Source of the DNA: Treponemataceae bacterium
Lineage (GTDB): Bacteria > Spirochaetota > Spirochaetia > Treponematales > Rectinemataceae
Assembly: GCA_963667725.2 (NCBI GenBank)
Contig: CAXXHO010000003.1
Span: forward strand, 288,001-352,000
Direction: 5' to 3'
Length of the DNA: 64,000 bases
Shown here: in pieces, positions 14,715 to 57,908 of the stretch
Layout of the letters: every line of letters starts with the position of its first letter
How positions within the stretch are numbered: position 1 is the first letter of the stretch
The notes under the pieces: model-generated
What the model was told of the DNA's origin: nothing
The model's input: the letters and a program-made list of their open reading frames with translations, nothing else
Databases searched by the model: none
Made by a program: the position numbers and the translations under genes

Positions 14715-15166
14715 TCATCAACATGAAGGTGAACGGCAAATCCATCGGCGTGGAATGCGATCCCGGCGATCCCCTGGTCGATGTCCTGCGCGCAGCCGGC
14801 TATACCGAAGTCAAGAAAGGCTGCGGTACGGGTAACTGCGGCCTCTGCACGGTTCTCCTCGATGGCATCCCCGTTCCCTCCTGTTCCGTCTTCGCGGGCC
14901 GCGCGGCCGACCGCGCCATAACGACGATTCGCGGCGTGGAAAAGGAAGCGACCGAACTCGCGAAATTCATCACCGCCGAAGGCGCGGAACAATGCGGTTT
15001 CTGTTCTCCCGGCTTCGCCCTCATGGTGCTGGCTATGCGGAAAGAATTGTCTTCCCCCACCGATGCCGAGATACGGCATTATCTGGCGGGCAACCTCTGC
15101 CGCTGTTCCGGCTACGAAGGCCATCTCCGCGCCGTTAGGAAGTTTCTGGAGGCCGGCCGTGAGTAA
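14711..15166 (+). CDS. Xanthine dehydrogenase family 2Fe-2S subunit
   Basis: GCGTGNCGLCTV, QCGFCSPG, GNLCRCSGY. Confidence 0.92.
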   Translation: MIINMKVNGKSIGVECDPGDPLVDVLRAAGYTEVKKGCGTGNCGLCTVLLDGIPVPSCSVFAGRAADRAITTIRGVEKEATELAKFITAEGAEQCGFCSPGFALMVLAMRKELSSPTDAEIRHYLAGNLCRCSGYEGHLRAVRKFLEAGRE

Positions 15167-17489
15167 GAATTTTTTCTCCGTCGGGCATAGCCTCCCCAAG
15201 ATCGACGGCCTAGGTCTCGTTACGGGCCGGCCGGCCTATACGGATGACCTCGCTCCCAGGGACGCGCTCGTCGTCAAAATCCTGCGAAGCCCGCACGCTT
15301 TCGCCAGAATCATCTCCATCGACGCGTCGAAGGCGCTCGCGTTGCCCGGCGTCGCTTGCGTCCTGACGTGGAAGGATGTCGGGCGCGTGTCCTATACCCG
15401 CGCCGGCCAGGGACATCCCGAGCCCAGTCCGCACGACAAATTCATACTGGATGAATATGTGCGCTATGTCGGGGATGAAGTCGCCATCGTCGCGGCCGAG
15501 GACGACGCGACGGCCGAGCGGGCGCTATCGCTCATCGTTACGGAGTACGAGATTCTCGAACCTGTTCTGGATTTCGAGAACGCGGCCGACAATCCCATCG
15601 TCATCCATCCCGAACCAGAAATACACGAAATGTTCCCCATCGGTTTTAAGCCTAAGCGCAATATCGCGGCCGCCTACGACATGAAAATAGGCGATGTCGA
15701 AAGGGAACTCGCCAAGAGCGATACCGTGCTGCAGAAGGCATTTTACACGCAGGCTCAATCCCATGTCGCCATGGAGCCTCATGTCGCCTACAGCTATCTC
15801 GATATCCACGGCAGGCTGAATATCTGCACGAGCACGCAGAATCCCTTCCATACGCGGCGCATTCTCGGCCAGGCGCTTTCGATGCCCCTCTCCCGGATCA
15901 GGGTGATGAAGCCGAGGATCGGCGGAGGTTTCGGCGGAAAGCAGCATATCCACGTCGAGCCCTTCGTCGCTCTCGTCACCCTGCGGACCGGCCGCGCGGC
16001 GCGCCTCGCCTTAAGCCGCAGGGAAGTGTTCGAAGCCACCTTCTGCCGGCATCAGATGCGTATCAGCATTCGTATCGGCGCCGACAAGGATGGTTCGCTC
16101 AACGTTATCGACATGAACGTGCTCTCCAACACCGGCGCGTACGGGGAACACGCGCTGACCGTCTTCATGGTGGGGGGCTCCAAGACCTTGCCGCTCTACA
16201 ACAAGACGAAAGCCGTGCACTACGGCGGAAAGGTCGTGTACACCAACAAGGTTTCCTCGGGCGCTTTCCGCGGTTACGGCGCCATCCAGGGGAATTTCGC
16301 CCTGGAGTCGATGATGGACGAACTGGCGCATGCGCTGCGTCTGGACCCGGTGGCCCTGCGCGAGAAGAATATGATCCGCGAAGGCCAGACGAGCGAGGTT
16401 TTCCGGATCATGGGCGAGGGGAGCGAAGGCATCGAGATGACGGTCGAGTCCTGCAAGCTCGATTACTGCGTCGCGCGAGGCAAGGAACTGATCGGATGGG
16501 AGCCTGGCAATTTGGCGCGGGAAGTGGCGCCGGGCAGGATCAGGGCCAAAGGCATGGCCATCGCGATGCAGGGATCGGGCATTCCTCTCGTCGATATGGG
16601 ATCGGCGACGCTCGAACTCCAGGACGGGGCTTGCTTCAAGCTGCGAATGGGCGCCACCGACCTGGGAACGGGCAGCGATACGATTCTCGCCCAGATAGCC
16701 GCTGAGGCGCTCGGTGTTCCAGTTTCCTCCATCGTCGTGTACGCGTCGGATACGGATCATACTCCTTTCGACGTAGGCGCCTACGCTTCGAGCACTACCT
16801 ATGTGTCGGGCAACGCTGTCCTCGCCGCGGCCAGGAAAATGAAGACTGTCCTGGAGGAAGCGGTGGCGGAACGTTATGCGATAAATAAAGACGAAGTGGT
16901 CTTCGACGGCGTCAATTTTCTTAGGAAAGACGGGAGCGCCCTTGTCGGTCTGGCTGAATTCAGTTTCGACACGCTCTACCACAACGGCGAGCTCATGAAA
17001 ACCCTGACTGCGACGGCTTCCTTCACCGGGGAAAAGTCGCCGCCGCCTTATATGGCCGGTTTTTCCGAAATTGAAGTGGATCTCGAGACCGGGAAAGTGG
17101 ATCTTCTGAAGTATGTCGCGGTAGTCGATTGCGGCACGACGATAAATCCCAATCTCGCTCGCATCCAGATGGAGGGCGGACTGCTCCAGGGCATCGGCAT
17201 GGCCTTGTTCGAGAATGTCAAATACAGCGGGAAGGGAAAGCTTCTCACTAACAGCCTCATGACCTATACGGTGCCTTCGCGTGAGGATGTCGGGGAGATT
17301 GTCGTGGAGTTCGCGGACAGCTACGAGCCTTCGGGACCTTTCGGCGCCAAGTCCGTGGCGGAAATCGGCATAGACACGCCGCCGGCTGCCATCGCCAACG
17401 CTATCCGGAACGCCACCGGTCTGCGCCTGGTCGAAACGCCTTTCACTCCGGAACGCGTGCTTATGGCGCTGAAGGCCGCGGCTAAATAG
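15159..17489 (+). CDS. Xanthine dehydrogenase family molybdopterin-binding subunit (XdhD-like)
   Basis: IGGGFGGKQ, AFRGYG, DLGTG, S.TT..SG, GPFGAKSVAE; GTG start overlapping the 2Fe-2S gene. Confidence 0.9.
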   Translation: MSKNFFSVGHSLPKIDGLGLVTGRPAYTDDLAPRDALVVKILRSPHAFARIISIDASKALALPGVACVLTWKDVGRVSYTRAGQGHPEPSPHDKFILDEYVRYVGDEVAIVAAEDDATAERALSLIVTEYEILEPVLDFENAADNPIVIHPEPEIHEMFPIGFKPKRNIAAAYDMKIGDVERELAKSDTVLQKAFYTQAQSHVAMEPHVAYSYLDIHGRLNICTSTQNPFHTRRILGQALSMPLSRIRVMKPRIGGGFGGKQHIHVEPFVALVTLRTGRAARLALSRREVFEATFCRHQMRISIRIGADKDGSLNVIDMNVLSNTGAYGEHALTVFMVGGSKTLPLYNKTKAVHYGGKVVYTNKVSSGAFRGYGAIQGNFALESMMDELAHALRLDPVALREKNMIREGQTSEVFRIMGEGSEGIEMTVESCKLDYCVARGKELIGWEPGNLAREVAPGRIRAKGMAIAMQGSGIPLVDMGSATLELQDGACFKLRMGATDLGTGSDTILAQIAAEALGVPVSSIVVYASDTDHTPFDVGAYASSTTYVSGNAVLAAARKMKTVLEEAVAERYAINKDEVVFDGVNFLRKDGSALVGLAEFSFDTLYHNGELMKTLTATASFTGEKSPPPYMAGFSEIEVDLETGKVDLLKYVAVVDCGTTINPNLARIQMEGGLLQGIGMALFENVKYSGKGKLLTNSLMTYTVPSREDVGEIVVEFADSYEPSGPFGAKSVAEIGIDTPPAAIANAIRNATGLRLVETPFTPERVLMALKAAAK

Positions 17490-20400
17490 CGACAACAGAT
17501 GGATCGAGGGCGGTGATCCCTGGGAGCGATAGCCGCTCCAGATATTCAAGAAAGGCGCGGGGACCCGAGGAAATATGGAGATTGTGGAAGTCTGGGGTAT
17601 CCGACTGCTTTTCTTCTTCGCTGCATACGATCGTCAGCGCGCCGCGTCGAATGGCTCTATGCAAGTCGGTCTTCTCGGCGGAAATTTTTCCAGGATTCCT
17701 GTTTTCCGAGCCAGGTATCAATTCTTCTAGTAAAGCCTGTCCTGACCATAGAATGGTCTTTGCCCCATCGAGCTTTCGAGCCAGCAATTCCTGTCCTGCC
17801 TCGCTATCCAGTTTCCCTTCCGTCGCCATGATCAGCTTGTCGGTGTAAGAGACTTTAAACGCGTCCATCATCGCCTGGGCAGCCTGCGGCGCGAAACGGG
17901 TTGCCTGTCCCCCACGATCCGCGTCCGAGCCTTCCGGGGCGATGATCGCCAGGGAATCCACCCTCGGCAGCAGGGCCGCCATGACACCGAATTGGGCCCT
18001 CGTTTCCCTGCCGGCGAAAACGGCGATGAAGGGTCTCGGCGGATTCTCCAGGAGGGTCTCTAAGATCGCCAGCTCCTTGGCCACCATTGGACCAGCGAGG
18101 CGGTGATCGACGAATTTTGGGACGCCCGTGATGCTCGCGTGACGCCGATGGCAGACGTTGAACGCGTCGTTGACATACCATCCATCGGAGAGAGCGGCGA
18201 GAGAGCGCGAAAAAGCCTCGTCATTGTCCCGCTCGCCCGTGGCGAAACGGAGATTCTCCAGAAGGTTTACGGTGCCAGGAACAATGTCTTTTTTCGTGAT
18301 GAGGAGGCCTGAAGCGGCCACGCTCGTCTTGTGAAACACAAGCTGTCTGCCAAGTTGCTGTCCAAGCGCCTTCGCGATGGGCCCGAGGCTGAAATCGCGG
18401 GAAATCTCTTCCCTGGTGAGGCGCGCGTCGAGTCCGGCGCCCGGATCGCCTAGATGGGAACAGACGATGGGTGTCCCTCCCTTGGCGAGGATCGATTCCA
18501 GCGTCGGGGCGATTTGCCGTATGCGCTGCATGCTGCTTGCCTTCCCTCGGAGGATCTCCACATTCGCGTCCACCCGCACAAGGACGAATCCTCCATTGAA
18601 GGAAACCACTTCGCCGAGAGAAGCCCTGTGGAGATTCGTCTCGCGATGGAGGCGGGTCAGCTCGGAATCGATAAGGCTCCTGACGACGAGGGCTGTCTCG
18701 GCCGCCGTCGGGCAGCGCCCGACGGCGGCGCTCACCGTGGCGAGCGGAAGGAAAAACTCGGAAATTGGAGCGATGCCCCGATATACCGCTCCGGTGTTTC
18801 CGTCGGCCGTCACGCGTTCCCCCTCGCGCAGTACGGCATCACCGGCGGCGTGGAAGATCACCAGGCCTTTTTCATAATCGATTTCCACGTCGTCGCAGCC
18901 TACGATACATGGCTTGTTCATGGACATCGCGGTAATGGCAGCGTGCGACGTCCTCCCCGGGTAGACGGTCACGATGGCGTGAGCGCCGTTCATCACGTCG
19001 AAATCCGTGGGTTTCGTGTTGTAGGCGATATAGACGACGCTTTCCCTTCTCGCGGTCGCTTCCTTGAGGCGCGCCTCGCTGAGCACGAGGGTTCCCGAAA
19101 CGACGCCGCCGTTGATCGGCACGCCGACGGTAAGCGGCGGATTCCATCGCCTCGAGAGGAAATCGGCGCGAGGCAGGGCGGCGTTCGCGTACGCCATTTC
19201 CAGTCGATCGATTCTCGACCGGTATTCGGTCAAATCGATGACGCCGCGGCCGAGAAAGTCCGTATCGGCGACGAGCTGCGCGAAGGCTCCCAGTCTGGCC
19301 GCCCTGGCCTGAAGAAAATAAAGGGCGCCGTCTTCGACCGTGAATTCCAGGTCCAGATCCTGTCGGTAATGATCGACGAGCAGCTTTTTCGCGCGTTCCA
19401 ATTCTTCGTAGATTACGGGGTCGAGCCTGGAGATGGGTTCCGTGTTGGCGCTTCCCATGACAACTTCCTCGCCCTGGGCCATCCTCTTGAATTCCCCAAA
19501 AAGCTCGTCGTCACCGGTGATGGGGTTTCGCGTAATCAGCACGCCGCTTAAGGATTTTTGGTTCAGGTTCCCGAAAGCCAGCTGCTGTATCGTCACCGCT
19601 GTCTCGGCATTGACGTTGGCCGCCAGCGTCCGTGAATAGGCGTTCACCGCTCTCGATCTTCTCGATCCATAGACGAGCCCGACGCAGCGCAAAAGCTGTT
19701 CCTCCGGATCGATGAGGAAACGTTGGCCGAGCGCCGCGGCCAGGCGCGCCTCCATTGCCTCAACCGTGCTTTCCTCTTCTTTTCCTGCCTGGCCGGAGCC
19801 CGAGTCGCCGCCCAAGCCCGCATCGCCGTCCAAGCCCGCATCGCCGTCCAAGCCACTATAGCCATCAAGGCCTGACATAAGATTCAGAGCCGACAAGCAG
19901 TTTTCCAGAAAACGGCGATAGAGCGAGGCGGTGAGATGGAGGCCTCTCCTCTTCTCCATATGAGCGCGCACTTCGGGGCTCCATCCAACATTGAGGATGG
20001 TCGCCATGACTCCGGGCATGGAGGTGGGAGCTCCCGAGCGGACCGATACGAGCAGGGGGTGCTCAGGATCGCCGAGTTTCCGTCCGCTCTGTTTCTCGAG
20101 TTCCTTCACCTCTTCGCGGATGGCGGCGGTGAGTTTTCCCTTGAGCGCTCCGTCAGTATCCCAGCCGGCAAAGAAAGGATAGCCGAGCACGAAGGCCGGA
20201 GGGACATGAAGTCCCAATCGCGCCATATCGATGATGCTGTTGCCTTTGCCGCCCAACGAGGCCCTGATCCTCTCGTCCGTTTCCTTCCATGTCGCGGCGA
20301 TGAAGGATTTCTGATCCAGGTCGAGGCCTTCTTTGCCCGGGCTCAGGTCGGCATACAGCTGCCTGTCGTCTGTCTGGCGTTCCAGCTCCCTGTCCACAGC

Positions 20401-21720
20401 CGCTGCCACTTTTTCGGTGAATTCGCTCAATACGTGTATCTGGGTGCGGCGGATGAAGTTGTTGAAGAAGCGGGTCTTTATGGGGGAAAGCTTGGATGTG
20501 GGAACCTCGTACTCTTCCAGGATTCTGTTCAGAACGCCGCTCATCGTGTCTATGATGTCAGACTGCAGATAGCGTTGCAGTTCGTTGCATATGGATCCCA
20601 GGCAGCGTTTCGCCTTGATGAAATCGTATACGGACGATTCGCGAAGTTCGTCGATTTCCGCCTGATGGGTTTCGACATCGCCTATCGCGAGCCCCTTTAT
20701 GCTGGAGATATTGAGCAGTTCGCGCATCACCGCCAGCGTGTCCCTGAGGTTGCGGGGAGTGACCTCCGCGAAGTGGTTGTTTGTCAGATCGTTCGCGAGC
20801 AGGAAGACGAGCCTGCCCAGCGACAGGTCCAGAAGCAGAAAATCGTAGAGGCTTATCCGCGATTCGTGGAATGATTCCTTGAGGTAATGCTTGAAGCTCG
20901 CCAGGCGCTTCAGGAGATCGAGTTCGAGATAGGGCTTGGCCAGGTTGTCCGGCGTGAGCATTTCGAGAAAACCCTTCACTTCGGCCTTGAGGAAGCATCG
21001 TTCGAAAAGCCCCAGGTTCTGCTCGAGCTGTCGCTTAACGGACGCGAGATTTCCCTTCTCGTAATCCCATAGGTAATTCAATCGTTCCAGAAGATCTTCG
21101 GCGAGTTCGATGAAACGGTTCCCCTCGTTTTCGGCGGAAAAGAACCGCGGCAAAGCCACGTAACCCGCCTTTACCATCGGTTCGGCATTTCCCTGCTTCG
21201 CCAACTGAAGGTAAGGCAGCAGAAAGCAATGAATGATCCTAGGCGACAGGCGCCGGTGGACTTCTTTACGCAGGTCCCCCGCGAAACCCAGCAGAGGATC
21301 GTCCTCTCGGCGCTCCTCTTCGAATGCTTCGGCCGTCGCTCGGATCTGTTCTATCATTTCCTCGGCGTCCTGGCGCAGCGGCAGTTTCTTGAGCACTTCG
21401 CGGGCATAATAGATGAAGCTCGCCGACGGCTGGCGTACCGCCGCGAGCATTTCCCTCGCTTCCCGTTCTATGTCGGCGTAAAGGGTTTCGATATCGCCTT
21501 TCTTCTGCCTCATGTCGGGAACGCATTCATCCTGTCCCAGGAGGCGGAGATTGATAAGGAGTTCTATTAGAAGCTTGATCCGCTCCGTTTCGCCGGAGAC
21601 TGAGCGGACAAGACGCAGGTGGGAAATTATGCTTTCCCATGTGTTGAGTCGCAGAGCGTCGCCCCCTGCTTTCACTATGGAGGAAGGGCTTGCCCTTGTC
21701 AACAATTGGTGTGTAAGCAA
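17482..21720 (-). CDS. Multidomain protein: unknown N-terminal domain + PPDK ATP-grasp + phospho-His swivel + phosphoglycerate-kinase-like domain
   Basis: LGGKG, LLVSVRSGA..SMPG.M.TILN.G, DLEFTVE.G.LYFLQ.R, GRTSHAA; then VLVRVDANV, SHLG, LLENLRF, YVNDAF...HR.HAS, P.RPF. True start uncertain. Confidence 0.85.
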   Translation of the reverse strand: MLTHQLLTRASPSSIVKAGGDALRLNTWESIISHLRLVRSVSGETERIKLLIELLINLRLLGQDECVPDMRQKKGDIETLYADIEREAREMLAAVRQPSASFIYYAREVLKKLPLRQDAEEMIEQIRATAEAFEEERREDDPLLGFAGDLRKEVHRRLSPRIIHCFLLPYLQLAKQGNAEPMVKAGYVALPRFFSAENEGNRFIELAEDLLERLNYLWDYEKGNLASVKRQLEQNLGLFERCFLKAEVKGFLEMLTPDNLAKPYLELDLLKRLASFKHYLKESFHESRISLYDFLLLDLSLGRLVFLLANDLTNNHFAEVTPRNLRDTLAVMRELLNISSIKGLAIGDVETHQAEIDELRESSVYDFIKAKRCLGSICNELQRYLQSDIIDTMSGVLNRILEEYEVPTSKLSPIKTRFFNNFIRRTQIHVLSEFTEKVAAAVDRELERQTDDRQLYADLSPGKEGLDLDQKSFIAATWKETDERIRASLGGKGNSIIDMARLGLHVPPAFVLGYPFFAGWDTDGALKGKLTAAIREEVKELEKQSGRKLGDPEHPLLVSVRSGAPTSMPGVMATILNVGWSPEVRAHMEKRRGLHLTASLYRRFLENCLSALNLMSGLDGYSGLDGDAGLDGDAGLGGDSGSGQAGKEEESTVEAMEARLAAALGQRFLIDPEEQLLRCVGLVYGSRRSRAVNAYSRTLAANVNAETAVTIQQLAFGNLNQKSLSGVLITRNPITGDDELFGEFKRMAQGEEVVMGSANTEPISRLDPVIYEELERAKKLLVDHYRQDLDLEFTVEDGALYFLQARAARLGAFAQLVADTDFLGRGVIDLTEYRSRIDRLEMAYANAALPRADFLSRRWNPPLTVGVPINGGVVSGTLVLSEARLKEATARRESVVYIAYNTKPTDFDVMNGAHAIVTVYPGRTSHAAITAMSMNKPCIVGCDDVEIDYEKGLVIFHAAGDAVLREGERVTADGNTGAVYRGIAPISEFFLPLATVSAAVGRCPTAAETALVVRSLIDSELTRLHRETNLHRASLGEVVSFNGGFVLVRVDANVEILRGKASSMQRIRQIAPTLESILAKGGTPIVCSHLGDPGAGLDARLTREEISRDFSLGPIAKALGQQLGRQLVFHKTSVAASGLLITKKDIVPGTVNLLENLRFATGERDNDEAFSRSLAALSDGWYVNDAFNVCHRRHASITGVPKFVDHRLAGPMVAKELAILETLLENPPRPFIAVFAGRETRAQFGVMAALLPRVDSLAIIAPEGSDADRGGQATRFAPQAAQAMMDAFKVSYTDKLIMATEGKLDSEAGQELLARKLDGAKTILWSGQALLEELIPGSENRNPGKISAEKTDLHRAIRRGALTIVCSEEEKQSDTPDFHNLHISSGPRAFLEYLERLSLPGITALDPSVVAI
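19801..19872 (-). repeat. 18-bp in-frame tandem repeat (GLDGYS-GLDGDA-GLDGDA-GLGGDS)
   Basis: CCAAGCCCGCATCGCCGT occurs twice exactly, with degenerate flanking units. Confidence 0.85.
21674..21702 (-). promoter_or_regulatory. Putative sigma70 promoter of the PPDK-PGK fusion
   Basis: Minus strand TTGACA-17bp-CATAGT. Confidence 0.55.
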
Positions 21721-45222: not shown

Positions 45223-46590
45223 ATGAACCCGCATGAGGACGCAAAAGCAATATTTCGTGCCGCCTTGGATCGCATCGACCCTATGCCGATGATTGAGCGC
45301 GCCTTTTCCCTGGAACGTGGAAATAATGGGGATCGCTTAGTCGTTCGTACCGATGTCGAAGAGACATGCATCGAACTGCCTGAGGGCGGCCGAGTGTTTG
45401 CGACCGGCATGGGGAAAGCCTCCGCAAGAATGGCTTTGGGTCTCGAGAAGGTCTTGGGTGACCGGCTTTCTGGAGGGCTTGTTGCGGTAAAGGAGAATCA
45501 TGTCGAGGCTTTGAGGAAGGTTAGGTTGATCGAGGCAGGCCATCCTATACCGGACTCGCGCTCCGAAAAAGCTGCCAACGCTATTCTCAATCTAGGAGCA
45601 TCCCTGGGGACGGTGCTGACGGATCGGGACCTTGTCATTGTTCTCGTATCAGGGGGGGGGTCGGCCATTCTTTGCGCCCCCGCAGAAGGTTTGTCCTTAA
45701 GCGACAAGAAACGAACGACCGCGCTTCTCTTGTCCTGCGGCGCGACTATCAACGAAATCAACTGCGTGCGCAAGCATCTTTCCGCTGTCAAGGGAGGTTG
45801 CCTGGCTGCGGCGCTGTTCCCTGCAAGGATTCTCGCCCTTGTGCTCTCTGATGTTGTGGGTGATGATCTTGATGTGATCGCTTCCGGACCCACCGTCCCC
45901 GATCCCACCACGTTTGCCGATGCCCTCGAAATCGTACAACGTTATCGGATTGAATCGAAACTTCCTTATTCTATAGCTGAGAGGCTGAGGAAAGGGATAG
46001 CTGGACAGTTGCCTGAAACTCCCAAACCAGGCGATGCTGTTTTTACGCACACACGTATCGTGCTGGTCGGAACGAACAGGTCCGCGTTGGCGGCGGCCAA
46101 GACGGAAGCGGAGCGCCGTGGCTACAATGCTCTTATCCTCTCGTCGAGAATCACCGGCGAGGCGCGAGAGGTCGCGCTTGTTTATCTCGGCATAGGGAAA
46201 GATATCGTTGCCTCGGGTTTCCCGCTGAAACGTCCGGCTTGCATCATCGCCGGCGGTGAGACTACGGTGACGAAGCGCGGGAAAGGCAAGGGCGGACGGA
46301 ACCAAGAGATGGCACTCGCTTTTCTTGCCGCTCTCGGACGAGTTCCCAAATTTGGCGAGGGGCTTGTTTTTTTGTCGGCGGGTACAGACGGTAGCGATGG
46401 CCCGACCGACGCGGCGGGCGCGCAGGTGGATCTCGCGCTCTATCGGAGCGCGCGCGATGCTGGCCTCGATCTTGAAGCATCGTTGGCTGATAACGACTCG
46501 TACAACTTTTTCTCGAAAGCGGGAGGCCTCATTAAGACTGGCCCGACTAACACGAATGTCTGTGATATTCAGATACTTCTTGTAAATTGA
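45223..46590 (+). CDS. Glycerate 2-kinase (class II, GckA/TtuD-MOFRL)
   Basis: GKAS, AGHP.PD, SGGGSA, RKHLS.VKGG, SDVVGD...IASGPT, GGET, GGRNQE, GTDG.DGPT, TGPT.TNV.D. Confidence 0.93.
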   Translation: MNPHEDAKAIFRAALDRIDPMPMIERAFSLERGNNGDRLVVRTDVEETCIELPEGGRVFATGMGKASARMALGLEKVLGDRLSGGLVAVKENHVEALRKVRLIEAGHPIPDSRSEKAANAILNLGASLGTVLTDRDLVIVLVSGGGSAILCAPAEGLSLSDKKRTTALLLSCGATINEINCVRKHLSAVKGGCLAAALFPARILALVLSDVVGDDLDVIASGPTVPDPTTFADALEIVQRYRIESKLPYSIAERLRKGIAGQLPETPKPGDAVFTHTRIVLVGTNRSALAAAKTEAERRGYNALILSSRITGEAREVALVYLGIGKDIVASGFPLKRPACIIAGGETTVTKRGKGKGGRNQEMALAFLAALGRVPKFGEGLVFLSAGTDGSDGPTDAAGAQVDLALYRSARDAGLDLEASLADNDSYNFFSKAGGLIKTGPTNTNVCDIQILLVN

Positions 46591-46973
46591 GGATTGTTGG
46601 CCAAGACTGTTGTGTACATAACGACAACTGGATTTTCTGTCAATATTAACACGTATCTAGTCTAAATCAGGTCTGCTTCTACTATAAATACGCACGTTGT
46701 TGTGGATGAACTAATTACCTGACCGGAAAAACTACTTTTTGTATCATCCAAAACAATTAAGGCTGTTCTGTAATGTCTGACCCGGCATAGAAAAAGATCA
46801 TGAGAAAGCGTTTTGTTCGGTAGATTCTACCACCAAGTGCAAAGATTAGAAGAGTTCATCATAAACCTCCAGTGGCGAGCGACTTGATACATAACTTCAT
46901 AGAGATCAAATCGAATTCAACGTATTTTAATAGGAGAACATCAAATACCTCTTTTGCTAAAATAATTTTTGTA

Positions 46974-47527
46974 TTACCAAATCCAAGTCAAGTTTTCGCC
47001 TAATTTCTCTTTTACATAAGCAAGTGACGGAAACACTATAGAGAACAAATAATTATTATACTCACGACCTTTTTCGTAGATAAAAAATTTCGTAGCATTA
47101 CTACCGTTAAACATTATATCGCGATCTACTGACCATGTAATAATATTTGATAAATACAATCGACTTGTTTTGGTACTGATATTACCATTACTCTCAAATA
47201 TCTCACCATTTGGCAATTTCAATTTTACAACATATGTATCATAATCACTTCCAGACACAATATTTTTTCCATATTCACGAAAAGATAGGCCGATCTCATT
47301 ATCGGATATTAAGACTACTACTAATAATTTTGAGTTCTGAGTTGCAGAGTCAGAGAAAGTACCTTCAACAACGTGAGCTAGATAAGCATGATCTGTTAGA
47401 TCACCAAACTCATCAATAAAATACCTAACTTCGAAATCAGTATCAGATTGGGCAAGAAGCGGATTTAAAGAAAACCCAAGAAAGAAAAAAATTACAGCAC
47501 AGACCAGAACTTTTTTTAAGTTTTCAT
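46974..47527 (-). pseudogene. Exported hypothetical protein with an apparent 1-nt frameshift right after ATG
   Basis: GGAGG RBS + ATG AAA ACT TAA; one extra A gives MKNLKKVLVCAVIFFFLGFSLNPLLA (signal peptide) and an open frame. Confidence 0.55.
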
Positions 47528-47896
47528 ATGATCCTCCTGTATTTGCTAGTATGGAAGCATATACACCTACTGTATACTTTCTTGGCCATTTCAATCGATT
47601 GCCAATAAGTTGAACTGAGCCCGTTTGTATTCCTTGAGTTTTCTAAAACAGCCTGCTAGTTTCTAAAGATTGGATCGGACTCAACACGCTTTAATATGAT
47701 CGAAGCGATCACATTCAGAACATAGAGCACATTCCTACCAGTCCCACCAAGGATAAAATAACTATATCATCATCAAAGATATGGGCGCCAGTCATCGAAA
47801 CGCCATGTTCTTCGATACCTTGATCCTCCGATGAATATAATGAGCCCACCTGTCTAGACAGAAAAGAATCAGGAATAAGGTGGACACCTTCTCCTC

Positions 47897-48733
47897 TCAT
47901 ACAGCTTCTTTGAGTTCCCTTGCCGGGAACTTACTCCAATAAATAGTGTCTGGAGTTTCGTACTCCAGCGATTGATGGAATCGCTCACTGTTATAAAACC
48001 TAAGGTAGCGAGCAAGCCCATCTTTCAGCTCCGTCATAGTTCGGTAATCCTTGAGATAAATGTCCTCGTACTTCAAGGATCTCCAGAACCGTTCTACAAA
48101 GATATTGTCCAGCGCCCTGTTTACGCCATCCATGCTGATTTGTATTCCATGAGATTCCAGCACCGACACAAAGGCGTCAGAAGTAAACTGGCTTCCTTGA
48201 TCTGTGTTAAAAATGCCTGGTACTCCGTAATGGGCAATTGCTTCTTCCAGTGCCGATACACAAAATTGGGCATCCATGGTGTTAGAAACCCGCCAGGACA
48301 GAATCTTCCTGGAATACAGGTCAATTATCGTAACCAGATAGACGTAACCGCCAGAAAGCTTGATATAGGTTATGTCAGACGCCCACACCTGATTCGGTAG
48401 CCAAATATTCATCCCCCTAAGTAAATAGGGGTATTTCTTGGAACCCTTGGACGGTTTGGAAAACTGAAGTCCAGGATAGATCGCCCGTAATCCGGCTTTC
48501 TTCATAATCCTTCGAACTTGCTTTCGTGTAACGTCCAAATAGATCAGTTCCCTTGCTATTCTACGGTAACCGTAGAACGGTTTCTCTTTCAGCACCTCGA
48601 GGATAGCTTCCAGAATAGCCAAATCATGATCTTCCGGAGCTTCCTTAGGCTGGTAGTAGTAAGATGATCGAGCTATCCCGAGGATCGTGCATTGCTGCGC
48701 TATTGAGAGCTCGGGATGATCGGCTTCTACCAT
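47897..48733 (-). CDS. IS3 transposase OrfB (DDE)
   Basis: PNQVWASDITY, NTDQGSQF, DNIFVERFWRSLKYE. Confidence 0.93.
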   Translation of the reverse strand: MVEADHPELSIAQQCTILGIARSSYYYQPKEAPEDHDLAILEAILEVLKEKPFYGYRRIARELIYLDVTRKQVRRIMKKAGLRAIYPGLQFSKPSKGSKKYPYLLRGMNIWLPNQVWASDITYIKLSGGYVYLVTIIDLYSRKILSWRVSNTMDAQFCVSALEEAIAHYGVPGIFNTDQGSQFTSDAFVSVLESHGIQISMDGVNRALDNIFVERFWRSLKYEDIYLKDYRTMTELKDGLARYLRFYNSERFHQSLEYETPDTIYWSKFPARELKEAV

Positions 48734-49029
48734 TTCGGATCGGTCCCGTACAGTTGTTTGTATTTTTTTTTAAGGTAGTCGTTCTCCACTTGGAGCTGTC
48801 CTATCTGTTTGTACAGTTCATCCTTTTGCCTCGTGGCGTCTTCTGTTGTTTTATCCTTCCCTTCTTTCTCAAAGAGCGCCGATGCGTGCTCCGAAAGTTG
48901 CCTTTTCCAGAGCGCGATCATGTTCGGATGGACCGAGTAAGTAATCGCCAGTTCCTGCAGAGTCTTTTCGCCCTTCAGGGCTTCCAAGGCTACTTTGGCC
49001 TTGAATTCTTTGTCGTACCGCTTTCTCAT
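48727..49029 (-). CDS. IS3 transposase OrfA
   Basis: MRKRYDKEFKAKVALEA HTH; LYKQIGQL.VENDYLKKK. Confidence 0.92.
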   Translation of the reverse strand: MRKRYDKEFKAKVALEALKGEKTLQELAITYSVHPNMIALWKRQLSEHASALFEKEGKDKTTEDATRQKDELYKQIGQLQVENDYLKKKYKQLYGTDPKW

Positions 49030-49286
49030 AGCTAACTCTATGCCTCCTTCTTTCCGTTCTGCAAGGAGGAGCGGTCCACTTTATATTGTCTCTATTCCTG
49101 TCCAGTTATCGCGGCTCATTATAGAATGAGACTCCGATTTCAGAGCGAGCCTTAATTTTCTTCTTGTCTAGCTAAAATTGATGGCAATGGCTACAACTGT
49201 GTCAAAGGAGGAGCATTTTTTGAGGCTTTTATCCCTAACTTTTAATAGGTTATCTTATAAATGCTTACAGAACAAACACTTAAATA

Positions 49287-49331
49287 GTGGAGAATAGGGG
49301 ATTCGAACCCCTGACCTATAGATTGCGAATC
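49287..49331 (-). mobile_element. 3' half of tRNA-Ala(CGC): att site of an integrated island extending to the right
   Basis: Reverse complement GA-TTCGCAA-TCTAT-AGGTC-AGGGG-TTCGAAT-CCCCT-ATTCTCC-AC: anticodon loop, T-arm and acceptor 3' strand present; 5' half absent. Confidence 0.85.
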
Positions 49332-49473
49332 AATGTTAGCATCTTCCCTAACTATCCTACAAACTCCCTATAGTCTACCTTATTTGTTGCACTAAAGCAA
49401 GATATGCTAAAGCTGATGCCTAGTATATCCCTATGATTCCATACAGGATCAGGCGTGCATCTTACAGTCCCTC

Positions 49474-49677
49474 TTACATTAAGTCAGTAATATTTACTTT
49501 CAGTGCCTCTGCGATTCTGTATAATGACTCTAAAGTTGGTTCTTTCCGTTTTGATTCAATATAGAAGATTGCACTATGCGACAAACCAGAGTCATTAGCC
49601 AATTTTAGGATTGAAATGCCCTTAGAATTGCGAATGCTTCTAATTCTTTCACAAACAACTTCTATTTCTTTTCGCAT
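49474..49677 (-). CDS. XRE family HTH regulator
   Basis: RIRSIRNSKGISILKLA..SGLS...I..IE.....PTL..L..IA.AL. Confidence 0.88.
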   Translation of the reverse strand: MRKEIEVVCERIRSIRNSKGISILKLANDSGLSHSAIFYIESKRKEPTLESLYRIAEALKVNITDLM

Positions 49678-49687
49678 TTACTGCTTG

Positions 49688-49742
49688 ACTCTTTAAAGAG
49701 AGTAAGCTTATTATTTTGTTAATACGACTCTCTATAGAGAGT
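49688..49742. promoter_or_regulatory. Two 16-bp palindromic operators upstream of the XRE gene
   Basis: ACTCTCTATAGAGAGT (perfect palindrome, 49727-49742) and ACTCTTTAAAGAGAGT (49688-49703). Confidence 0.7.
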
Positions 49743-49856
49743 TATATATATAATGATACCGATTAAGTTTAGATGAAGGTCAAGAATTTTAAGGGATAAT
49801 CGATACTCTAATTGTATTTATTAAAATGATATAGGTACAAATATGGAGATAGTGGA

Positions 49857-51257
49857 ATGAAGAAACCAGGAACGATAATTCTTATAGCATTATTTCTTTC
49901 CTTAGCCATTGCCTGTTCACCGGTGATCAATACTATCGTCACTACTACGACAATCCCGACAACCACTACATCCTCTACAACTACGTCTACAACGACAATA
50001 CCCATCGCCACTACAACAACGACTTCATCTACAACAACAACAACGATTGTACCAAAATATACGGTGAGCTTTGAAACTAATGGTGGATCATTAGTAAACC
50101 CAATTGTGGAAAGCAGAATAACAGAAATTCCAGTATCTGCAAAAAGTGCATATGCTTTGGAAGGATGGTTTTCCAATTCTTCTTTTACATCAGCAAGCAA
50201 GATTAGTTTTCCCTATGTGCCTACATCTAGCATCACCATTTATGCAAAATGGATATCTGCGACTGAAGGGCTACAATTTGAAACCAGTGGTGATGGATAC
50301 AGTGTCTCAAAAGGAACAGCTAACACATCAGGTAGTATAACCATTCCCGAGTTCTGGTTGGGTAAAAGTGTCATTAGTATTGGAATAGAGGGCTTTAGGG
50401 ACAGTGTTGACTTGCTACAGATTAATATTCCCAATAGTGTCAAAACAATTAAAAATGGGGCTTTTAGAAATTGCTTAAGTCTTTCTACTATTACAATTCC
50501 TGATAGTGTTACTACAATAGAATCGGATACATTCTATAATAGTGGTTTGCATAGTATAACCGTCCCTAATGGCATAGTAACAATAACAGCTGTGACATTT
50601 GGTAGCTGTGATAAACTAACTGATGTAGTGTTACCAAGTAGTATAACTTCGATAGAAGATTGTGCTTTTACTTATTGTACTTCGTTGAAGTCCATCAATC
50701 TTCCAGAAGGATTAGCTTCAATCGGTAAGGGGGCTTTCTCGGTTTGCAGCAGCCTAAAGAATATTAATCTACCGAGTAGTCTAAAAAGTCTTGGTGAAAG
50801 CGCATTTTTTTCAACCGGGTTGACTGGTGAATTAATAATTCCAAAGGGTATTGGAATAATTGACATTGGTGCATTTAATATTAGTAGAGGAATTACTAAA
50901 GTAATAATACCAGAAGGAATTACTTCAATCGGTCGTTTTGCATTTAATGGATGTAATATTACTGAACTATCACTACCGAACAGCCTAACCTCCATTGGGA
51001 ACTCTGCATTTTCTGAAAGTTATATAAGTAGCCTTACTATTCCATCAAATGTGAATTTAATAGGAGCGTCTGCTTTTTCTGGATGTTTTGACCTAGCAAT
51101 TGTAAAAGCCGATCCAATAGTTCCACCCTTAACAAATGAAACACTTTTTGATTCATGTATTAAACTTACTACCATCAAAGTGCCGTCAGTGAGTGTTAAT
51201 GCTTACAAGACAAGCGATGGATGGAGTATATACTCAGATAAGGTTATATCTCAATGA
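49857..51257 (+). CDS. BspA-type leucine-rich-repeat surface lipoprotein with Thr-rich stalk and InlB B-repeat-like domain
   Basis: Lipobox LAIAC; poly-Thr; YTVSFETNGGS...GWF...YAKW; repeated IP.SV..I...AF..C..L. Confidence 0.9.
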   Translation: MKKPGTIILIALFLSLAIACSPVINTIVTTTTIPTTTTSSTTTSTTTIPIATTTTTSSTTTTTIVPKYTVSFETNGGSLVNPIVESRITEIPVSAKSAYALEGWFSNSSFTSASKISFPYVPTSSITIYAKWISATEGLQFETSGDGYSVSKGTANTSGSITIPEFWLGKSVISIGIEGFRDSVDLLQINIPNSVKTIKNGAFRNCLSLSTITIPDSVTTIESDTFYNSGLHSITVPNGIVTITAVTFGSCDKLTDVVLPSSITSIEDCAFTYCTSLKSINLPEGLASIGKGAFSVCSSLKNINLPSSLKSLGESAFFSTGLTGELIIPKGIGIIDIGAFNISRGITKVIIPEGITSIGRFAFNGCNITELSLPNSLTSIGNSAFSESYISSLTIPSNVNLIGASAFSGCFDLAIVKADPIVPPLTNETLFDSCIKLTTIKVPSVSVNAYKTSDGWSIYSDKVISQ

Positions 51258-51485
51258 CAGAAATAATTACTGAGCATAAGGAAGATTAAGCAATTTTGGT
51301 AAAAGGTTATTTGTTTAATCAATTTTTTGATTGTAACTATGTTATGACATTTTTGTGAACAGTAGATAAAAAGTTTATCGATATCAAGTAAGAGTTTTAT
51401 TGCTCTGATTATATAACTAATAGTCGTTGTCTATACTAAAGTAATTCTTTATTAAAAAAAAATAGAATAATTTACTTGTTTTTCA

Positions 51486-51513
51486 TTGACATAATCCTAG
51501 ACAGGAGCATAAT
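51486..51513 (+). promoter_or_regulatory. Putative sigma70 promoter
   Basis: TTGACA-16bp-CATAAT upstream of 51581. Confidence 0.45.
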
Positions 51514-51580
51514 TTATTTATTCCAGTAGATTAGCATAAGTATGAACTAACTTGGGCATCTTTATTACAGGAGAAGTAAT

Positions 51581-52660
51581 ATGTTCAAGAGGACTTTCTT
51601 ATGTTTAACTCTTCTAGTGATATCATGGTCCTATGTAATCGCAGATCCTGAAGAAGATAGACTACTAGATAGTCTATACAATACATATGAATCATCATCA
51701 AAAAGCGAAATGGTTAATCGAATAGCTACATTTCTCATGCTTGATGATAATAGTATAAGGAGAATACGAAATGGAGATCATACAGGTATCAGCATACCTG
51801 TACCAGTGGTTGATCAATTAGCTAATGTATTTTTTAGTACTGAAAGTGACTATACAAATTTTCAAGAACTTAGAAGGAAGTATATCAGTACAAGAGATCA
51901 AACAATAATTGAAAATAATATGGAATGGATAGCTAAAAAGACTGTTTCTAAAGATGTATTAGATGCTTGGATAAAGTATAAGGAAATTAAGGCAGCCGCT
52001 AATGGTTTGTCATATGAATTAAAAATAACTAGGGGTTCAAAAACAGCAGTACTTACGATATTTTGGAGACCCATGGATGATTTTGCTCCAGATTCAATAT
52101 TAGTCAGTTCCATTGATCTTTATAATATCAAACTAAACAGTCCTGGTTCATTTAAGATAAATACAAGAATATCTAAAGGAAGTACTTCGGTAATATTAAG
52201 AAGGGATAATGATGAGGATACAATAATACTTATTAAATTTGCAGGAGTTGGAAATGAAATATCGTGTATGACTCAAAGTAGTAGTTGGAATAATGGCATA
52301 ACAAATGGTATAGAAGGGGGTTGGACAATTACCAATACTAGATTTGTACCAAAAAGATTGGCAATTGATTGGGGAGCTGTATTCCAAATAGGCAATTACG
52401 TTCGTTTTCAAAAGTATACAAAGGGTGGTAATAATATATATAAGTCGAATTTGGAACAAAATGTTATGGAGACTTACAGGATCTTAGATAATAGAATTGT
52501 CAAAATATTGGACTTAACTAGCCCAGATGGAGCTCCAGTAATAAGTCGTTCTGAAAATAATGAAGAACTATTAGGGATATATGTAATTAATGGCAATCAT
52601 GCTATTTTATCGCTTTATAATGAATGTATTGTTGAAATGGAAAGGTATGAAGAAGACTAA
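51581..52660 (+). CDS. Exported hypothetical protein
   Basis: 359-aa ORF in AT-rich DNA, AGGAG RBS, signal peptide ending VIA-D; no family recognised. Confidence 0.75.
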   Translation: MFKRTFLCLTLLVISWSYVIADPEEDRLLDSLYNTYESSSKSEMVNRIATFLMLDDNSIRRIRNGDHTGISIPVPVVDQLANVFFSTESDYTNFQELRRKYISTRDQTIIENNMEWIAKKTVSKDVLDAWIKYKEIKAAANGLSYELKITRGSKTAVLTIFWRPMDDFAPDSILVSSIDLYNIKLNSPGSFKINTRISKGSTSVILRRDNDEDTIILIKFAGVGNEISCMTQSSSWNNGITNGIEGGWTITNTRFVPKRLAIDWGAVFQIGNYVRFQKYTKGGNNIYKSNLEQNVMETYRILDNRIVKILDLTSPDGAPVISRSENNEELLGIYVINGNHAILSLYNECIVEMERYEED

Positions 52661-52868
52661 AAAGGAACTTAATTAGGGTTAGTGATTATAGTGATCCTGA
52701 TGTCCTGTGCCTTGGAGATTGGAACGCTGATGGCCGTTCCTACAGTGAGTCAATAGTCTAAATGAAATGATATACCCCATAGAATGTAACTTGTGGATAA
52801 AGCAGTTTATAAAAAGCTTAAGAAAGCTGGCATTTGACTTTAAAAAGTTGAAGATAAATAAAAATCGT

Positions 52869-53345
52869 AATCCACCGGCTAAGCCGGTGAGGCTTAAAAA
52901 GGCTATGCCGTGGAGTGCGAGATAGAATAAGGTACCCCTAAGGTAGCCCCCTGACAAAGGCAACCAAAAGAGTACCAAGTAGATTGGCAAAGCTTAGCCC
53001 ACACCAAGTGGGAGTGTAAGTATCACATAGTAATCGAACCAAAGTACAGAAAGAAAGTGCTCTATGGTAAGATACGAAAAAGGATAGGGGAACTACTACG
53101 AGAATTATGCAAATATAAAGGGATCGAAATACTAGAAGGGTATGCAATGTCCGATCATGTGCATCTGTGTTTGTCGGTACCACCGAAATATAGTATTTCA
53201 ATGGCGATTGGGTATTTGAAATGGAAAAGTGCAATCCGGGATACACCGGGAGGTATTAGGAACCAAAATAGGATTTACATATAAGAACTTCTGGAGTAGA
53301 GGATATTGTGTTAGTACCGTAGGTCTCAATGAAGAGCATCTGAAC
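52869..53345 (+). pseudogene. tnpA: IS200/IS605 TnpA (Y1 HUH) remnant with left-end hairpin
   Basis: Hairpin CACCGGCTAAGCCGGTG; SLAHTKWECKYHIV..PKYRKK, DHVH, frameshift, then FWSRGYCVSTVG; truncated. Confidence 0.85.
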
Positions 53346-53437
53346 TACAGGTGGACTGAATTTCAAATTGACCTATCACTAAATGCCAAATGTGTCTTGA
53401 TATATTAATGATCAATGGACTTAAGGAGAATTAGGAA

Positions 53438-53737
53438 GTGAACAAAGCAATCATGAAAAACTTGAAACGCTCAAGCCTGAAGCTTATCAAAATGGCTAAC
53501 GAGCTATTAACCTTAGCCGAAAATATCGACTCGCTAGTCGCAGCAAAAGAAAGGCAGGTGAATAAAGAAGCTTTAGATAACAAGGACAAGGTTCAGAGGC
53601 CTGTATCAAATAAGAAAACTGTAGCTGTGACTGCCAAGAAGGAGCCTAAGAATCAGACTGTTAAAAAGGAATTGACTTCAGTGTCAATGGAAAAACCAAA
53701 AGCTAAGAGGGGTAGACCTGCTAAGAAAGGAATTTAA
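53438..53737 (+). CDS. Small Lys-rich protein with C-terminal AT-hook-like motif
   Basis: N-terminal coiled-coil-like helix, basic tail ending KAKRGRPAKKG; purine-rich RBS. Confidence 0.6.
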   Translation: MNKAIMKNLKRSSLKLIKMANELLTLAENIDSLVAAKERQVNKEALDNKDKVQRPVSNKKTVAVTAKKEPKNQTVKKELTSVSMEKPKAKRGRPAKKGI

Positions 53738-53775
53738 TCCTTTACAGTATTTTATTATATCTATAAAGAGGTAGT

Positions 53776-54534
53776 ATGCCAGTTAAAAGTAATTCACTTA
53801 CTCATTTTACAGAGGAAATTGATACTCTTAGAAGTATTTTGGAAAATGGCTTTTTACCCTCATACTGTACTGAAGATTTTTCATATATTTTTGAGTCAAC
53901 ACCTCTAATACCTTCTGCACCAAGCATTCCAATGGTCTGCTTTTGTGATATACCAATTCATCTAATTAATGATCATATTGAACGGTATGGAAAGTATGGT
54001 TTAGGTCTCCAAAAATCTTGGGGAATAAAGAAACACTTGAATCCTGTTTCATATATCATTGCTGAATCAAGTTATACTAATAGTCTAATAATGTACGCTC
54101 AATTTTTTATGAAGGCTCTTGATATATTAGTCGGTAGTATTTCTTCAAAAGAAAAAATAGCATATCTAAAAGGGTTTGCATTAATATTATCATATACAAA
54201 GCCTTGTATAATTAAGGTTGATGGTGAAGATTTTGATGCATCACAAGAAAATGAATGGAGGTATATTCCATTCGACTTTACTAGCACACAAATATTCCCA
54301 TTTGATCTTGAAGAACCAATAGCGAAAGCTGCTGGAGAAAAAAGATTTCTAAAAGACTATCCACTACAATTTGAGCCTGATGATATTAAGTACATTTTCG
54401 TAAAAGAAGAATCCGATAGATTGCATGTGGTTAATATGATAAAGGAATTAAAATCAAGCAAGTATACCAATGACCAGCTAGCTATATTAACAAGTAAAAT
54501 ATTATCCTCGGAACAGATTATATATGATATGTAG
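53776..54534 (+). CDS. AbiGi-family abortive-infection protein
   Basis: LTHFT...L.SIL..GF...YC.E, PMVCFCDIP...I..H...YG.YG.GL.K.W, ENEWRY, L.F...DI.YI.V. Confidence 0.75.
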   Translation: MPVKSNSLTHFTEEIDTLRSILENGFLPSYCTEDFSYIFESTPLIPSAPSIPMVCFCDIPIHLINDHIERYGKYGLGLQKSWGIKKHLNPVSYIIAESSYTNSLIMYAQFFMKALDILVGSISSKEKIAYLKGFALILSYTKPCIIKVDGEDFDASQENEWRYIPFDFTSTQIFPFDLEEPIAKAAGEKRFLKDYPLQFEPDDIKYIFVKEESDRLHVVNMIKELKSSKYTNDQLAILTSKILSSEQIIYDM

Positions 54535-54757
54535 TTCTAGAATAGTATGATCAATGTTATGTAATCTGTCCATGGAATCCATCTCTGCCCTTTATCTCCT
54601 TCCCCTATCTAACCCTTCAAAATCCAAGCTCATACCCGTAAGTAAAGACCATCAAGCTGAGAAATCTTTTCAGTGATAGCTGCCTGAAGAGTATCTTTGT
54701 GACCATTAGCCTCGATCTTATTGCTCTGATCATTATTGGCTCTCCTCCCCTTAATAG

Positions 54758-56398: not shown

Positions 56399-56843
56399 CT
56401 TTTTGTTTCTTTGGTGCTTTTGTTCTCAATTCGTGGAAAAGACTTTTCTCTTTTTTCTCCTTAAGATTCACTAGATTCGGATACCAAACCTCGTCTGAGC
56501 TAATGAAGGTAGATTTGAGTGGGTACAGTTGGATGGTAGGAAGGCTTACTACTTTCATAGAACTATAGTTAACGGTCTGAAAAGATTAGTGTTGCTTTTG
56601 AGAGGAGAGGAAAGGAGAAGGAGTGGCTTAGTTCAAGAGTGGATGATCAAGGATTAGTGGGAGTGAGTCAAAAAAAGAGAGGAAGGCATTTCTGCTTTTT
56701 CCCCTCCCGCTTGATGAGAGCAATATATATAGTTACATAGTTCAGATATTAGCTTGAAATGGGAATAGTGCGTGAGCAACCTATTAAATAAATTTCGCAT
56801 ATATTTAAGACTTTTAGTTGGTATTACTCAGACATATTAGAAT

Positions 56844-57908
56844 TTATAAGTAGGGACGTGTAACAGTATTTCGCCAGCATTGAGGATCTGGTGCATAGAA
56901 ATCACCGTTTGAGTGTGCGAAGGCTACAGCGGGACACCCCCTACATTCAAAATGGAGAGGGCAATGTACGCATGCTTTGAAATTACTATATTGTCTATAG
57001 TACATTAATGCAGGGGAGGTAAAAATTTCTGCTACTGATTGTTCTGGTAGTTTTCCTATAAAGCTTTCAAATCTTCTGCATGCATAAACGCTGCCGTCTG
57101 GAAGGATTGTTAAGTTGCTTTTCCCAATATGGCACCCAGAAATTATCTGTTTTGCAGGATTATCCTTTATTTTATATTCCCCTTGCTCATATAAAAGCAA
57201 TTTCCATAAATTGTCTTTGTGTGATAACTTGGTTTTATTCCCATGCGAATATAATTCTTTAGATTCTCTTTGAATAGCTAAAAGGACATTCTTATATTGG
57301 ATAGGTGTAAAATCCTCTTTAGCTATTGTACTTAATGAAGGTACATATCGGGCAAATGAAAAAAGGTCTACACCTAGTTCAGAAACGAATCTATATGTTG
57401 GGATTAGGTCTTGTACATTTATTTTGCTCACAGTGAACATGACTATTGAACGTAGGCTAGAGCTAACAAGTTTTTTAATACCATCAACAGTGAAATTAAA
57501 ACTACCTGATCCTCGAATTAAGTCATGAGTATTTTCTAACCCATCAAGGCTCAATTGATAACTCTTTACACCAAGACTTAATAGCTGGTTAATGCAATTC
57601 ATTGTCAGGTAATTTGGATTTCCCATAATATGGCAAGGTATCTCTTTACTATGAAAGTAATTCAATAGTTCCCAGAAATCTTGACGTAGCAGTGGATCAC
57701 CACCAGTTATAAAGAAAACTGGGTAAGCATGCGCCCTCGAACAGAATTCGATGACTGAGTCAACTATCAATATACAATCATTAAGTGAAAGCTCTTTTTC
57801 AAGATCATGAGAGTATCGTAGACTATTAATTGAATAACAATGTTGACATTTTTGTTCGCACTTTGCTGTAATATGCCATTGGATAGCAAACCATGGTAAA
57901 CCATTCAT
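56844..57908 (-). CDS. Radical SAM/SPASM peptide maturase (resembles ACGX-system maturases)
   Basis: QWHIT..CEQKCQHCY, TGGDP, YQLS.DG, FARY.P, KD.LW; SPASM GC...LP.G.VYACRR...C..C.....CRGCPA...DPQCW. Start set to ATG 57908, 7 nt after the peptide stop. Confidence 0.9.
   Translation of the reverse strand: MNGLPWFAIQWHITAKCEQKCQHCYSINSLRYSHDLEKELSLNDCILIVDSVIEFCSRAHAYPVFFITGGDPLLRQDFWELLNYFHSKEIPCHIMGNPNYLTMNCINQLLSLGVKSYQLSLDGLENTHDLIRGSGSFNFTVDGIKKLVSSSLRSIVMFTVSKINVQDLIPTYRFVSELGVDLFSFARYVPSLSTIAKEDFTPIQYKNVLLAIQRESKELYSHGNKTKLSHKDNLWKLLLYEQGEYKIKDNPAKQIISGCHIGKSNLTILPDGSVYACRRFESFIGKLPEQSVAEIFTSPALMYYRQYSNFKACVHCPLHFECRGCPAVAFAHSNGDFYAPDPQCWRNTVTRPYL

Follow-up and report, generated by a model that had tools for sequence, protein, structure and literature searches.

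A family of bacterial proteins joining a dikinase core to a phosphoglycerate kinase module: a candidate His-relay kinase

What does a phosphoglycerate kinase (PGK) module do at the end of a dikinase? This question was raised by one gene in the window, that is, the whole stretch of 64,000 nucleotides analysed here (positions 288,001 to 352,000 of contig CAXXHO010000003.1, assembly GCA_963667725.2, Treponemataceae bacterium). The gene encodes the ATP-grasp and swivel phosphohistidine domains of a pyruvate, phosphate dikinase (PPDK), followed by a PGK fold. To our knowledge, PGK is treated as the sole route between 3-phosphoglycerate (3-PG) and 1,3-bisphosphoglycerate (1,3-BPG), and the fusion could move phosphate at this central step of sugar metabolism in a manner so far undescribed. 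The fusion represents a real, conserved and unstudied bacterial enzyme family. Our preferred reading, to which we assign a probability of roughly 0.45, is a His-relay kinase that forms AMP and converts 3-PG and 1,3-BPG into each other. This step is favoured because the 3-PG residues are conserved, the swivel histidine (H926) and the ATP-grasp domain are kept, and a sister family is linked to glyceraldehyde-3-phosphate dehydrogenase (GAPDH). Neither this architecture nor a phosphoglycerate dikinase was described in the open-access literature searched.

Domain organization of the fusion protein

The gene and its domains were located in the window as follows.

17482..21720, minus strand: whole open reading frame (protein P0001), 1412 codons counted from TTG, no internal stop
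20356..21642, minus strand: all-helical domain, residues 27-455, predicted model pLDDT (model confidence) mostly 85-93, no Pfam match
21256-21258, minus strand: codon of H155, invariant in the helical domain by conservation
20449-20451, minus strand: codon of R424, invariant in the helical domain, aligned to R904 of the plant dikinase StGWD1
19150..20310, minus strand: PPDK-type ATP-grasp and first linker, residues 471-857, from Pfam, fold match and conservation
18751..19149, minus strand: swivel phosphohistidine domain, residues 858-990, from Pfam and a fold match to 2fm4 (Z 17.7)
18943-18945, minus strand: codon CAC of the swivel His926, from the translation
18634..18750, minus strand: linker helices, residues 991-1029, where PPDK has its linker to the pyruvate barrel
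18031..18633, minus strand: PGK N-lobe, residues 1030-1230, from Pfam, fold and conservation
17482..18030, minus strand: PGK C-lobe, residues 1231-1412, which retains the fold but not the nucleotide motifs

The GTG at 21675 is probably the true start, giving 1397 amino acids, because the 93%-identical homolog P0002 begins there. An earlier note on this DNA had described one reading frame with PPDK nucleotide motifs and a swivel His, and all of the motifs it quoted were found in the translation, with His926 encoded at 18943-18945. Its claim that a PGK fold replaces the pyruvate barrel also held. Pfam matched PPDK_N, PEP-utilizers and PGK at residues 527-760, 893-977 and 1040-1259 with E values of 1e-20, 2e-17 and 3e-51, respectively. 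The phosphoenolpyruvate (PEP)/pyruvate barrel (PEP-utilizers_C, PF02896) had no match in the Pfam scan or in the structure comparison of the 471-1412 model.

Two AlphaFold models were used, covering residues 27-1007 (981 residues, pLDDT 83.7) and 471-1412 (pLDDT 83.0). The modelled protein matched PPDK (1kbl) with Z 32.3 and a root-mean-square deviation (rmsd) of 4.1 over 499 aligned residues, covering PPDK residues 2-532, and the 471-1412 model matched the complete two-lobed PGK 4dg5 with Z 34.1 and rmsd 2.8 over 340 aligned residues. The PGK therefore begins at the start position of the PPDK pyruvate barrel. It sits right after the position of the PPDK C-terminal linker, which we counted in favour of the preferred reading. 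The domain order is helical, ATP-grasp, His, PGK, and the protein is predicted to be soluble from its domain content. A low-complexity loop of GLDG repeats with low pLDDT was seen in an ATP-grasp subdomain (19783-19875).

Distribution and genomic setting

An architecture search, as the earlier note had proposed, found the same three-family architecture in 61 of 74 protein matches, at 39-93% identity. Among 74 genome loci, taken from the best 80 of 109 matching stretches, 72 contained the fusion or pieces of it and the remaining two were ordinary PGKs. By record titles the loci belonged to Spirochaetota, Riflebacteria, Elusimicrobiota, Wallbacteria and Myxococcota. An assembly artefact was ruled out by homologs in many genomes. 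In sequencing run X3 one contig spans the stretch, but it may itself be the source; in run X5, from a separate study, 30 of 30 bins were covered in pieces, with no piece spanning the whole stretch, and run X23 gave no coverage. Run X5 also carried an 18-base deletion at 19805, inside the GLDG-repeat loop.

The occurrence of the fusion was patchy. It was found in 22 of the 69 genomes of the host's family, and 400 further Spirochaetota, sampled evenly, yielded one match, which was weak and belonged to a relative that has no PGK. Neighbour comparison showed no conserved operon across phyla, neither a glycogen nor a glycolytic operon was apparent from Pfam in the 90 of 121 neighbour types scanned, and no GAPDH-like gene was near the fusion in loci L008-L079. 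Nine of ten carrier genomes tested gave only a canonical-type GAPDH match. The host genome also has a canonical PGK, its own PPDK and a third swivel gene of enzyme I size. That the fusion is the sole PGK of its genome was ruled out by the separate canonical PGK in the host and in all five non-spirochaete carriers tested. The canonical PPDK of the host (G000:C3:1021610-1024850) has a Lys/Ala-rich C-terminal tail of about 150 residues.

Conservation of the phosphate-donor side

The swivel His, in a T-S-H motif, was present in 101 of 102 rows, the other row having an X. The nucleotide-site residues of the ATP-grasp domain (K492, R561, R603, E751, D790, E792, Q804 and R806) are present in this protein and near-invariant across the family. 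We take the Lys, Arg, D-x-E and Q-x-R residues to have their usual roles in the nucleotide site, and PDB titles name the PPDK mutants K22 and R337. The family also retained the PPDK-type subdomain with its YxRF motif, which separates PPDK from glucan, water dikinase (GWD) (PMC13553574). Fold and residues together suggest that H926 is phosphorylated from the beta-phosphate of ATP with release of AMP. Pyrophosphate (PPi) would be the co-product, because the PPDK-type subdomain is kept. The swivel domain carries two family-specific basic residues, K903 and R923.

The PGK module keeps its 3-PG side

A set of 108 non-redundant PGK modules was compared, with two frameshifted rows and short fragments excluded. 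The ATP lobe, graded by the motifs GGxK, GGGD and STGGG, was intact in 31, eroded in 69 including this protein, and intermediate in 8. In pig PGK the 3-PG site consists of D23, N25, H62, R65, R122 and R170 (PMC7729029). Five of these six residues are kept in this protein, and the R65 equivalent is Asp (D1092). The N-lobe residues for 3-PG are D1051, N1053, R1066, H1089, R1158 and R1192. Conservation reached 106/106 for both D1051 and N1053, 107/108 for both H1089 and R1158, 108/108 for R1192 and 100/108 for R1066. The 3-PG residues were retained in all lobe groups, including the 69 with an eroded ATP lobe, except at the Arg65 position. That position was Asp or Glu in 108 of 108 modules and was followed by an insertion carrying Arg1103 (107/108).

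The 3-PG side, which the earlier note reported as largely retained, was found near-invariant across the 108 modules. Its claim of eroded ATP-side motifs applied to this protein and 68 others, which lost GGxK, GGG, GP.G.FE, GGGD and STGGG, but not to the 31 modules with a complete ATP lobe. Compared with intact relatives, the eroded C-lobe falls short by about 37 residues, with mostly Glu or Asp at the GGxK lysine (E1239 here).

The suggestion that SHLGDP hints at a substrate other than 3-PG was rejected. The same motif and insertion occurred in 6 of 31 ordinary spirochaete PGKs, including that of the host, so SHLGDP is compatible with 3-PG. These canonical SHLGDP PGKs grouped in a separate clade that excluded the fused modules. 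In the ordinary PGK of the host (G000:C3:938772-939983) and in five more spirochaete PGKs, Asp takes the Arg65 position and an insertion of about 25 residues is present.

In a quick tree with some long branches, 26 fused modules stood on one side of a branch and 34 canonical PGKs on the other (SH-aLRT 100). When this tree was rooted on the canonical PGKs, the intact-lobe fused modules branched first and the lobes from spirochaetes came last. Two spirochaete genomes (L112:5329-6571 and L113:6458-7646, both minus strand) each carry a stand-alone, degenerate PGK-like gene in which both sites are eroded; downstream of it lie a large membrane-type gene and valyl-tRNA synthetase.

A probable kinship of the helical domain with glucan water dikinases

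The earlier note had left the helical N-terminus unassigned. It was all-helical in the model, and the domain is probably a remote homolog of the acceptor-side central domain of GWD and phosphoglucan, water dikinase (PWD), linked to it by sequence through relatives that have no PGK. Screening 1.84 billion representatives with a profile identified full-length proteins, 995-1150 amino acids long, that combine the helical domain with ATP-grasp and His domains and have neither PGK nor barrel. Their helical domain matched that of the fusion family at an hhalign probability of 99.85%. A larger family of about 1420 amino acids also carries the helical domain. The helical, ATP-grasp and His domains exist together without PGK, so the acceptor site may lie outside the PGK module.

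Among 251 Planctomycetota genomes, 7 supplied the GWD test set of 13 bacterial proteins of GWD/PWD type. One of them matched the StGWD1 central-domain crystals 9HA9/9QVI (E 1.6e-72), and 6 of the 6 GWD-type ones reproduced the spacing of StGWD1 E900, E901, R904, R923, W931 and H992 (numbering from PMC13553574); they were therefore taken as valid proxies. The fusion family together with its PGK-less relatives matched the GWD/PWD set at 97.2% (hhalign, E 3.9e-11, 384 colinear columns), or 90.7% with a smaller set. The controls stayed low, at 1.3% or less for reversed profiles, 0.6% or less for 34 unrelated profiles, and 3.4% for an unrelated helical region. The invariant R424 (95/95) fell on StGWD1 R904, a proposed catalytic helper facing the His (PMC13553574), while E900/E901 corresponded to N420/N421. 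Identity to GWD/PWD was 12-15%.

Other results speak against this kinship. The fusion family alone matched GWD/PWD at only 2.6% or 0.5%, and the family of about 1420 amino acids alone at less than 1%. An hmmsearch of the helical-domain profile against the 13 proteins gave 10 bits at best, and 9HA9/9QVI, although present in the PDB sequence set, were unmatched by the helical domain at E 10. Fold searches with the 981-residue model returned only generic bundles (Z at most 10.4), with 9HA9 possibly outside the fold library. Searches of the helical domain against Pfam, PDB sequences and the ESM Atlas gave nothing clear, the ESM Atlas clusters being unnamed or PPDK_N (below 0.9), and a metagenome scan for PGK-less relatives matched the PPDK part only.

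A sister family is linked to GAPDH

The family of about 1420 amino acids contained at least 3738 sequence clusters among 8000 candidates, and its sequences are named PEP synthase or PPDK although they have no pyruvate barrel. Many named matches came from Thermodesulfobacteriota; the GAPDH counts cover Spirochaetota, Planctomycetota, the Riflebacteria phylum and Myxococcota. The loci seen were as follows.

L204:6625-12149; L263-L278, L280-L282; L288, L291-L294, L297, L298: barrel-less dikinase of about 1420-1500 amino acids beside a divergent GAPDH, annotated PEP synthase/PPDK

A divergent GAPDH adjoined the sister gene in 27 of 30 informative loci, after three cut by contig ends were excluded. 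The adjacency was seen in 19/19, 6/6, 2/4 and 0/1 loci of Spirochaetota (19 of 23 matches), Planctomycetota, the Riflebacteria phylum and Myxococcota, respectively. In Spirochaetota the GAPDH was on the same strand with gaps of 6-297 bp, and in the two Riflebacteria-phylum loci the genes were convergent. The linked GAPDH retained the catalytic Cys motif and had no Asp after the second strand, a possible mark of NADP use. PGK and GAPDH have 1,3-BPG as a common metabolite. With a PGK fusion in one branch and a GAPDH neighbour in another, two dikinase branches are tied to enzymes sharing 1,3-BPG. A Myxococcota protein of 1082 amino acids (L284:8274-11522) has ATP-grasp and His domains of another type and follows phosphomutase-like and ROK-kinase-like genes.

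Comparison with known systems

Judged by sequence, the fusion appears to resemble PPDK, GWD and rifampin phosphotransferase in its working, yet it belongs to none of these, nor to PGK. The ATP-grasp domain, linkers and swivel His are arranged and folded as in PPDK (EC 2.7.9.1; TIGR01828; 1KBL), and the nucleotide-site residues are shared with it. In contrast to PPDK, the fusion has a PGK module instead of the PEP/pyruvate barrel and an extra helical N-domain of 430 residues, and its TIGR01828 score was 326.6 bits against a cut-off of 843.45. The helical domain, with about 430 residues against 444 and about 20 helices, is similar in size to that of GWD1/PWD (StGWD1; 9HA9, 9QVI; PMC13553574), with a colinear profile match and a common His-facing Arg. 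However, the GWD order is carbohydrate-binding module, helical, His, ATP-grasp, and the fusion has a PPDK-type ATP-grasp with a His domain (PF00391) after it. The GWD-type His domain PF22973 had no match in the fusion protein, nor in 151 Spirochaetota genomes. The PGK module has the two-lobed fold and 3-PG residues of PGK (EC 2.7.2.3; PF00162; 4DG5), but its ATP lobe is eroded in this protein. Like the fusion, VadK/Rv1127c is a PPDK derivative without the pyruvate barrel, but it has no acceptor domain, whereas the fusion has two added domains (PMC13400623). Rifampin phosphotransferase and the HpeHI-type small-molecule dikinases also use an AMP-forming His relay from ATP-grasp to a non-pyruvate acceptor (PMC12167813), but their acceptor domain and order differ, and only the ATP-grasp and His domains align.

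The Planctomycetota GWD-like and PWD-like genes were tandem in L224:6440-13505, L225, L226, L227 and L228 and single in L229, L230 and L231. The L224 tandem adjoins a GT4/GT5-type glycosyltransferase, and the PWD-like protein has a xylose-isomerase-like barrel at its N-terminus. A limited literature search showed no description of these genes.

Proposed mechanism and alternatives

The ATP-grasp domain would cleave ATP, phosphorylate H926 and release AMP and probably PPi, by the chemistry of PPDK, whose residues and fold are seen here. The His domain would swing to a second site, as in PPDK, GWD and rifampin phosphotransferase, and phosphate would move to or from 3-PG. The PGK N-lobe would bind 3-PG or 1,3-BPG, its own ATP lobe being dispensable in spirochaetes. 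Transfer could take place in the PGK cleft, or in the GWD-like helical domain, in which case the PGK module would hold the metabolite or pass it on; we give the two about even odds. If the His docks in the PGK cleft, the conserved acidic residues 1092, 1104, 1163 and 1239 could meet K903 and R923; the R424 helix would be the alternative docking place. The net reaction, 3-PG + ATP + Pi = 1,3-BPG + AMP + PPi, would be near equilibrium, at about +3 to +6 kJ/mol by textbook values. The fusion would be an accessory enzyme next to the housekeeping PGK and PPDK.

Several points weigh against this mechanism. Helical-domain relatives of known function phosphorylate glucan hydroxyls and not carboxylates, and the invariant His-facing helix with R424 fits an acceptor site there, perhaps for another ligand. 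The full PGK ATP lobe of 31 modules would compete with the His domain for the cleft. The fusion family matched the GAPDH-linked family at just 10.5% (hhalign); the link passes through the third group of about 1000-1150 amino acids (96.9%), which has no PGK module and whose one locus seen had no GAPDH or PGK neighbour. Related genomes contributed some of the loci, which therefore do not count independently, and the proposed function draws on sequence, fold and gene context.

A rather unlikely alternative is that a glucan such as glycogen, or a sugar, binds the helical domain as acceptor, while the PGK module senses 3-PG or 1,3-BPG and switches the dikinase. The controlled GWD/PWD match, the invariant R424 at the R904 position and the core without PGK all agree with it, a ligand site kept while the ATP site is lost is typical of sensors, and 4 of 5 carrier genomes tested had a glycogen-synthase-type gene (the fifth a weak partial match). 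Yet Pfam found no carbohydrate-binding module, the N-terminus being predicted all-helical, the neighbour types scanned held no glycogen gene, whereas true bacterial GWD/PWD-like genes adjoin a GT4/GT5-type glycosyltransferase, E900/E901 are replaced by N420/N421, and the GAPDH operons of the sister family are left unexplained. The protein could also be a regulatory His kinase that, like VadK, autophosphorylates and passes phosphate to, or binds, partners such as GAPDH, PGK or its own PGK module, with 3-PG as signal. We regard this as improbable. VadK does autophosphorylate and interact with metabolic enzymes (PMC13400623), its family NF004531 was the second-best NCBIfam match, and the large helical domain could be a protein-binding surface; however, the NF004531 score of 292 lay below the cut-off of 456, VadK holds just two domains, and the helical domain has a GWD-type register and 52 positions at which a charged residue or His is conserved, which suggest an enzyme site.

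Phosphorylation of the 3-PG 2-hydroxyl to give 2,3-bisphosphoglycerate would suit an intact 3-PG site and GWD-type domains acting on hydroxyls (PMC13553574), but D1051 and N1053, which bind the 2-oxygen in PGK (PMC7729029), are unchanged and the GAPDH link indicates the 1-position, making this very improbable. Hardly probable at all is a loose fusion in which the PGK module forms ADP like any ordinary PGK and does not depend on the His. The motifs GGSK, GGGD and STGGG do persist in 31 of 108 members, but this protein lost them and about 37 residues of the lobe, and the host and the five non-spirochaete carriers tested have a canonical PGK besides.

If the His-relay mechanism is true, it would alter how ATP and PPi are accounted for in anaerobes, whose PPi supply is described as an open question (PMC8863071). 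In the direction of 3-PG the enzyme would make ATP from PPi, and in the opposite direction it would power gluconeogenesis. Paired in a cycle with ordinary PGK, its net outcome would be ADP + Pi -> AMP + PPi, which could supply PPi to PPi-dependent glycolysis. It is possible, though doubtful, that the fusion is a "phosphoglycerate, phosphate dikinase", an undescribed AMP/PPi-linked alternative to PGK, within a superfamily comprising thousands of genes wrongly annotated as "PPDK/PEP synthase", whose helical domain has a common ancestry with the starch-phosphorylating domain of plant GWD/PWD.

Other features of the window

Promoter and terminator scans gave chance-level signals. The 3' end of the fusion gene (17482-17489) overlaps by 8 bases with a convergent xanthine-dehydrogenase-type Mo subunit gene (15063-17489). 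GC content drops from about 0.57 to 0.34-0.43 at 46001-64000, which suggests an acquired island.

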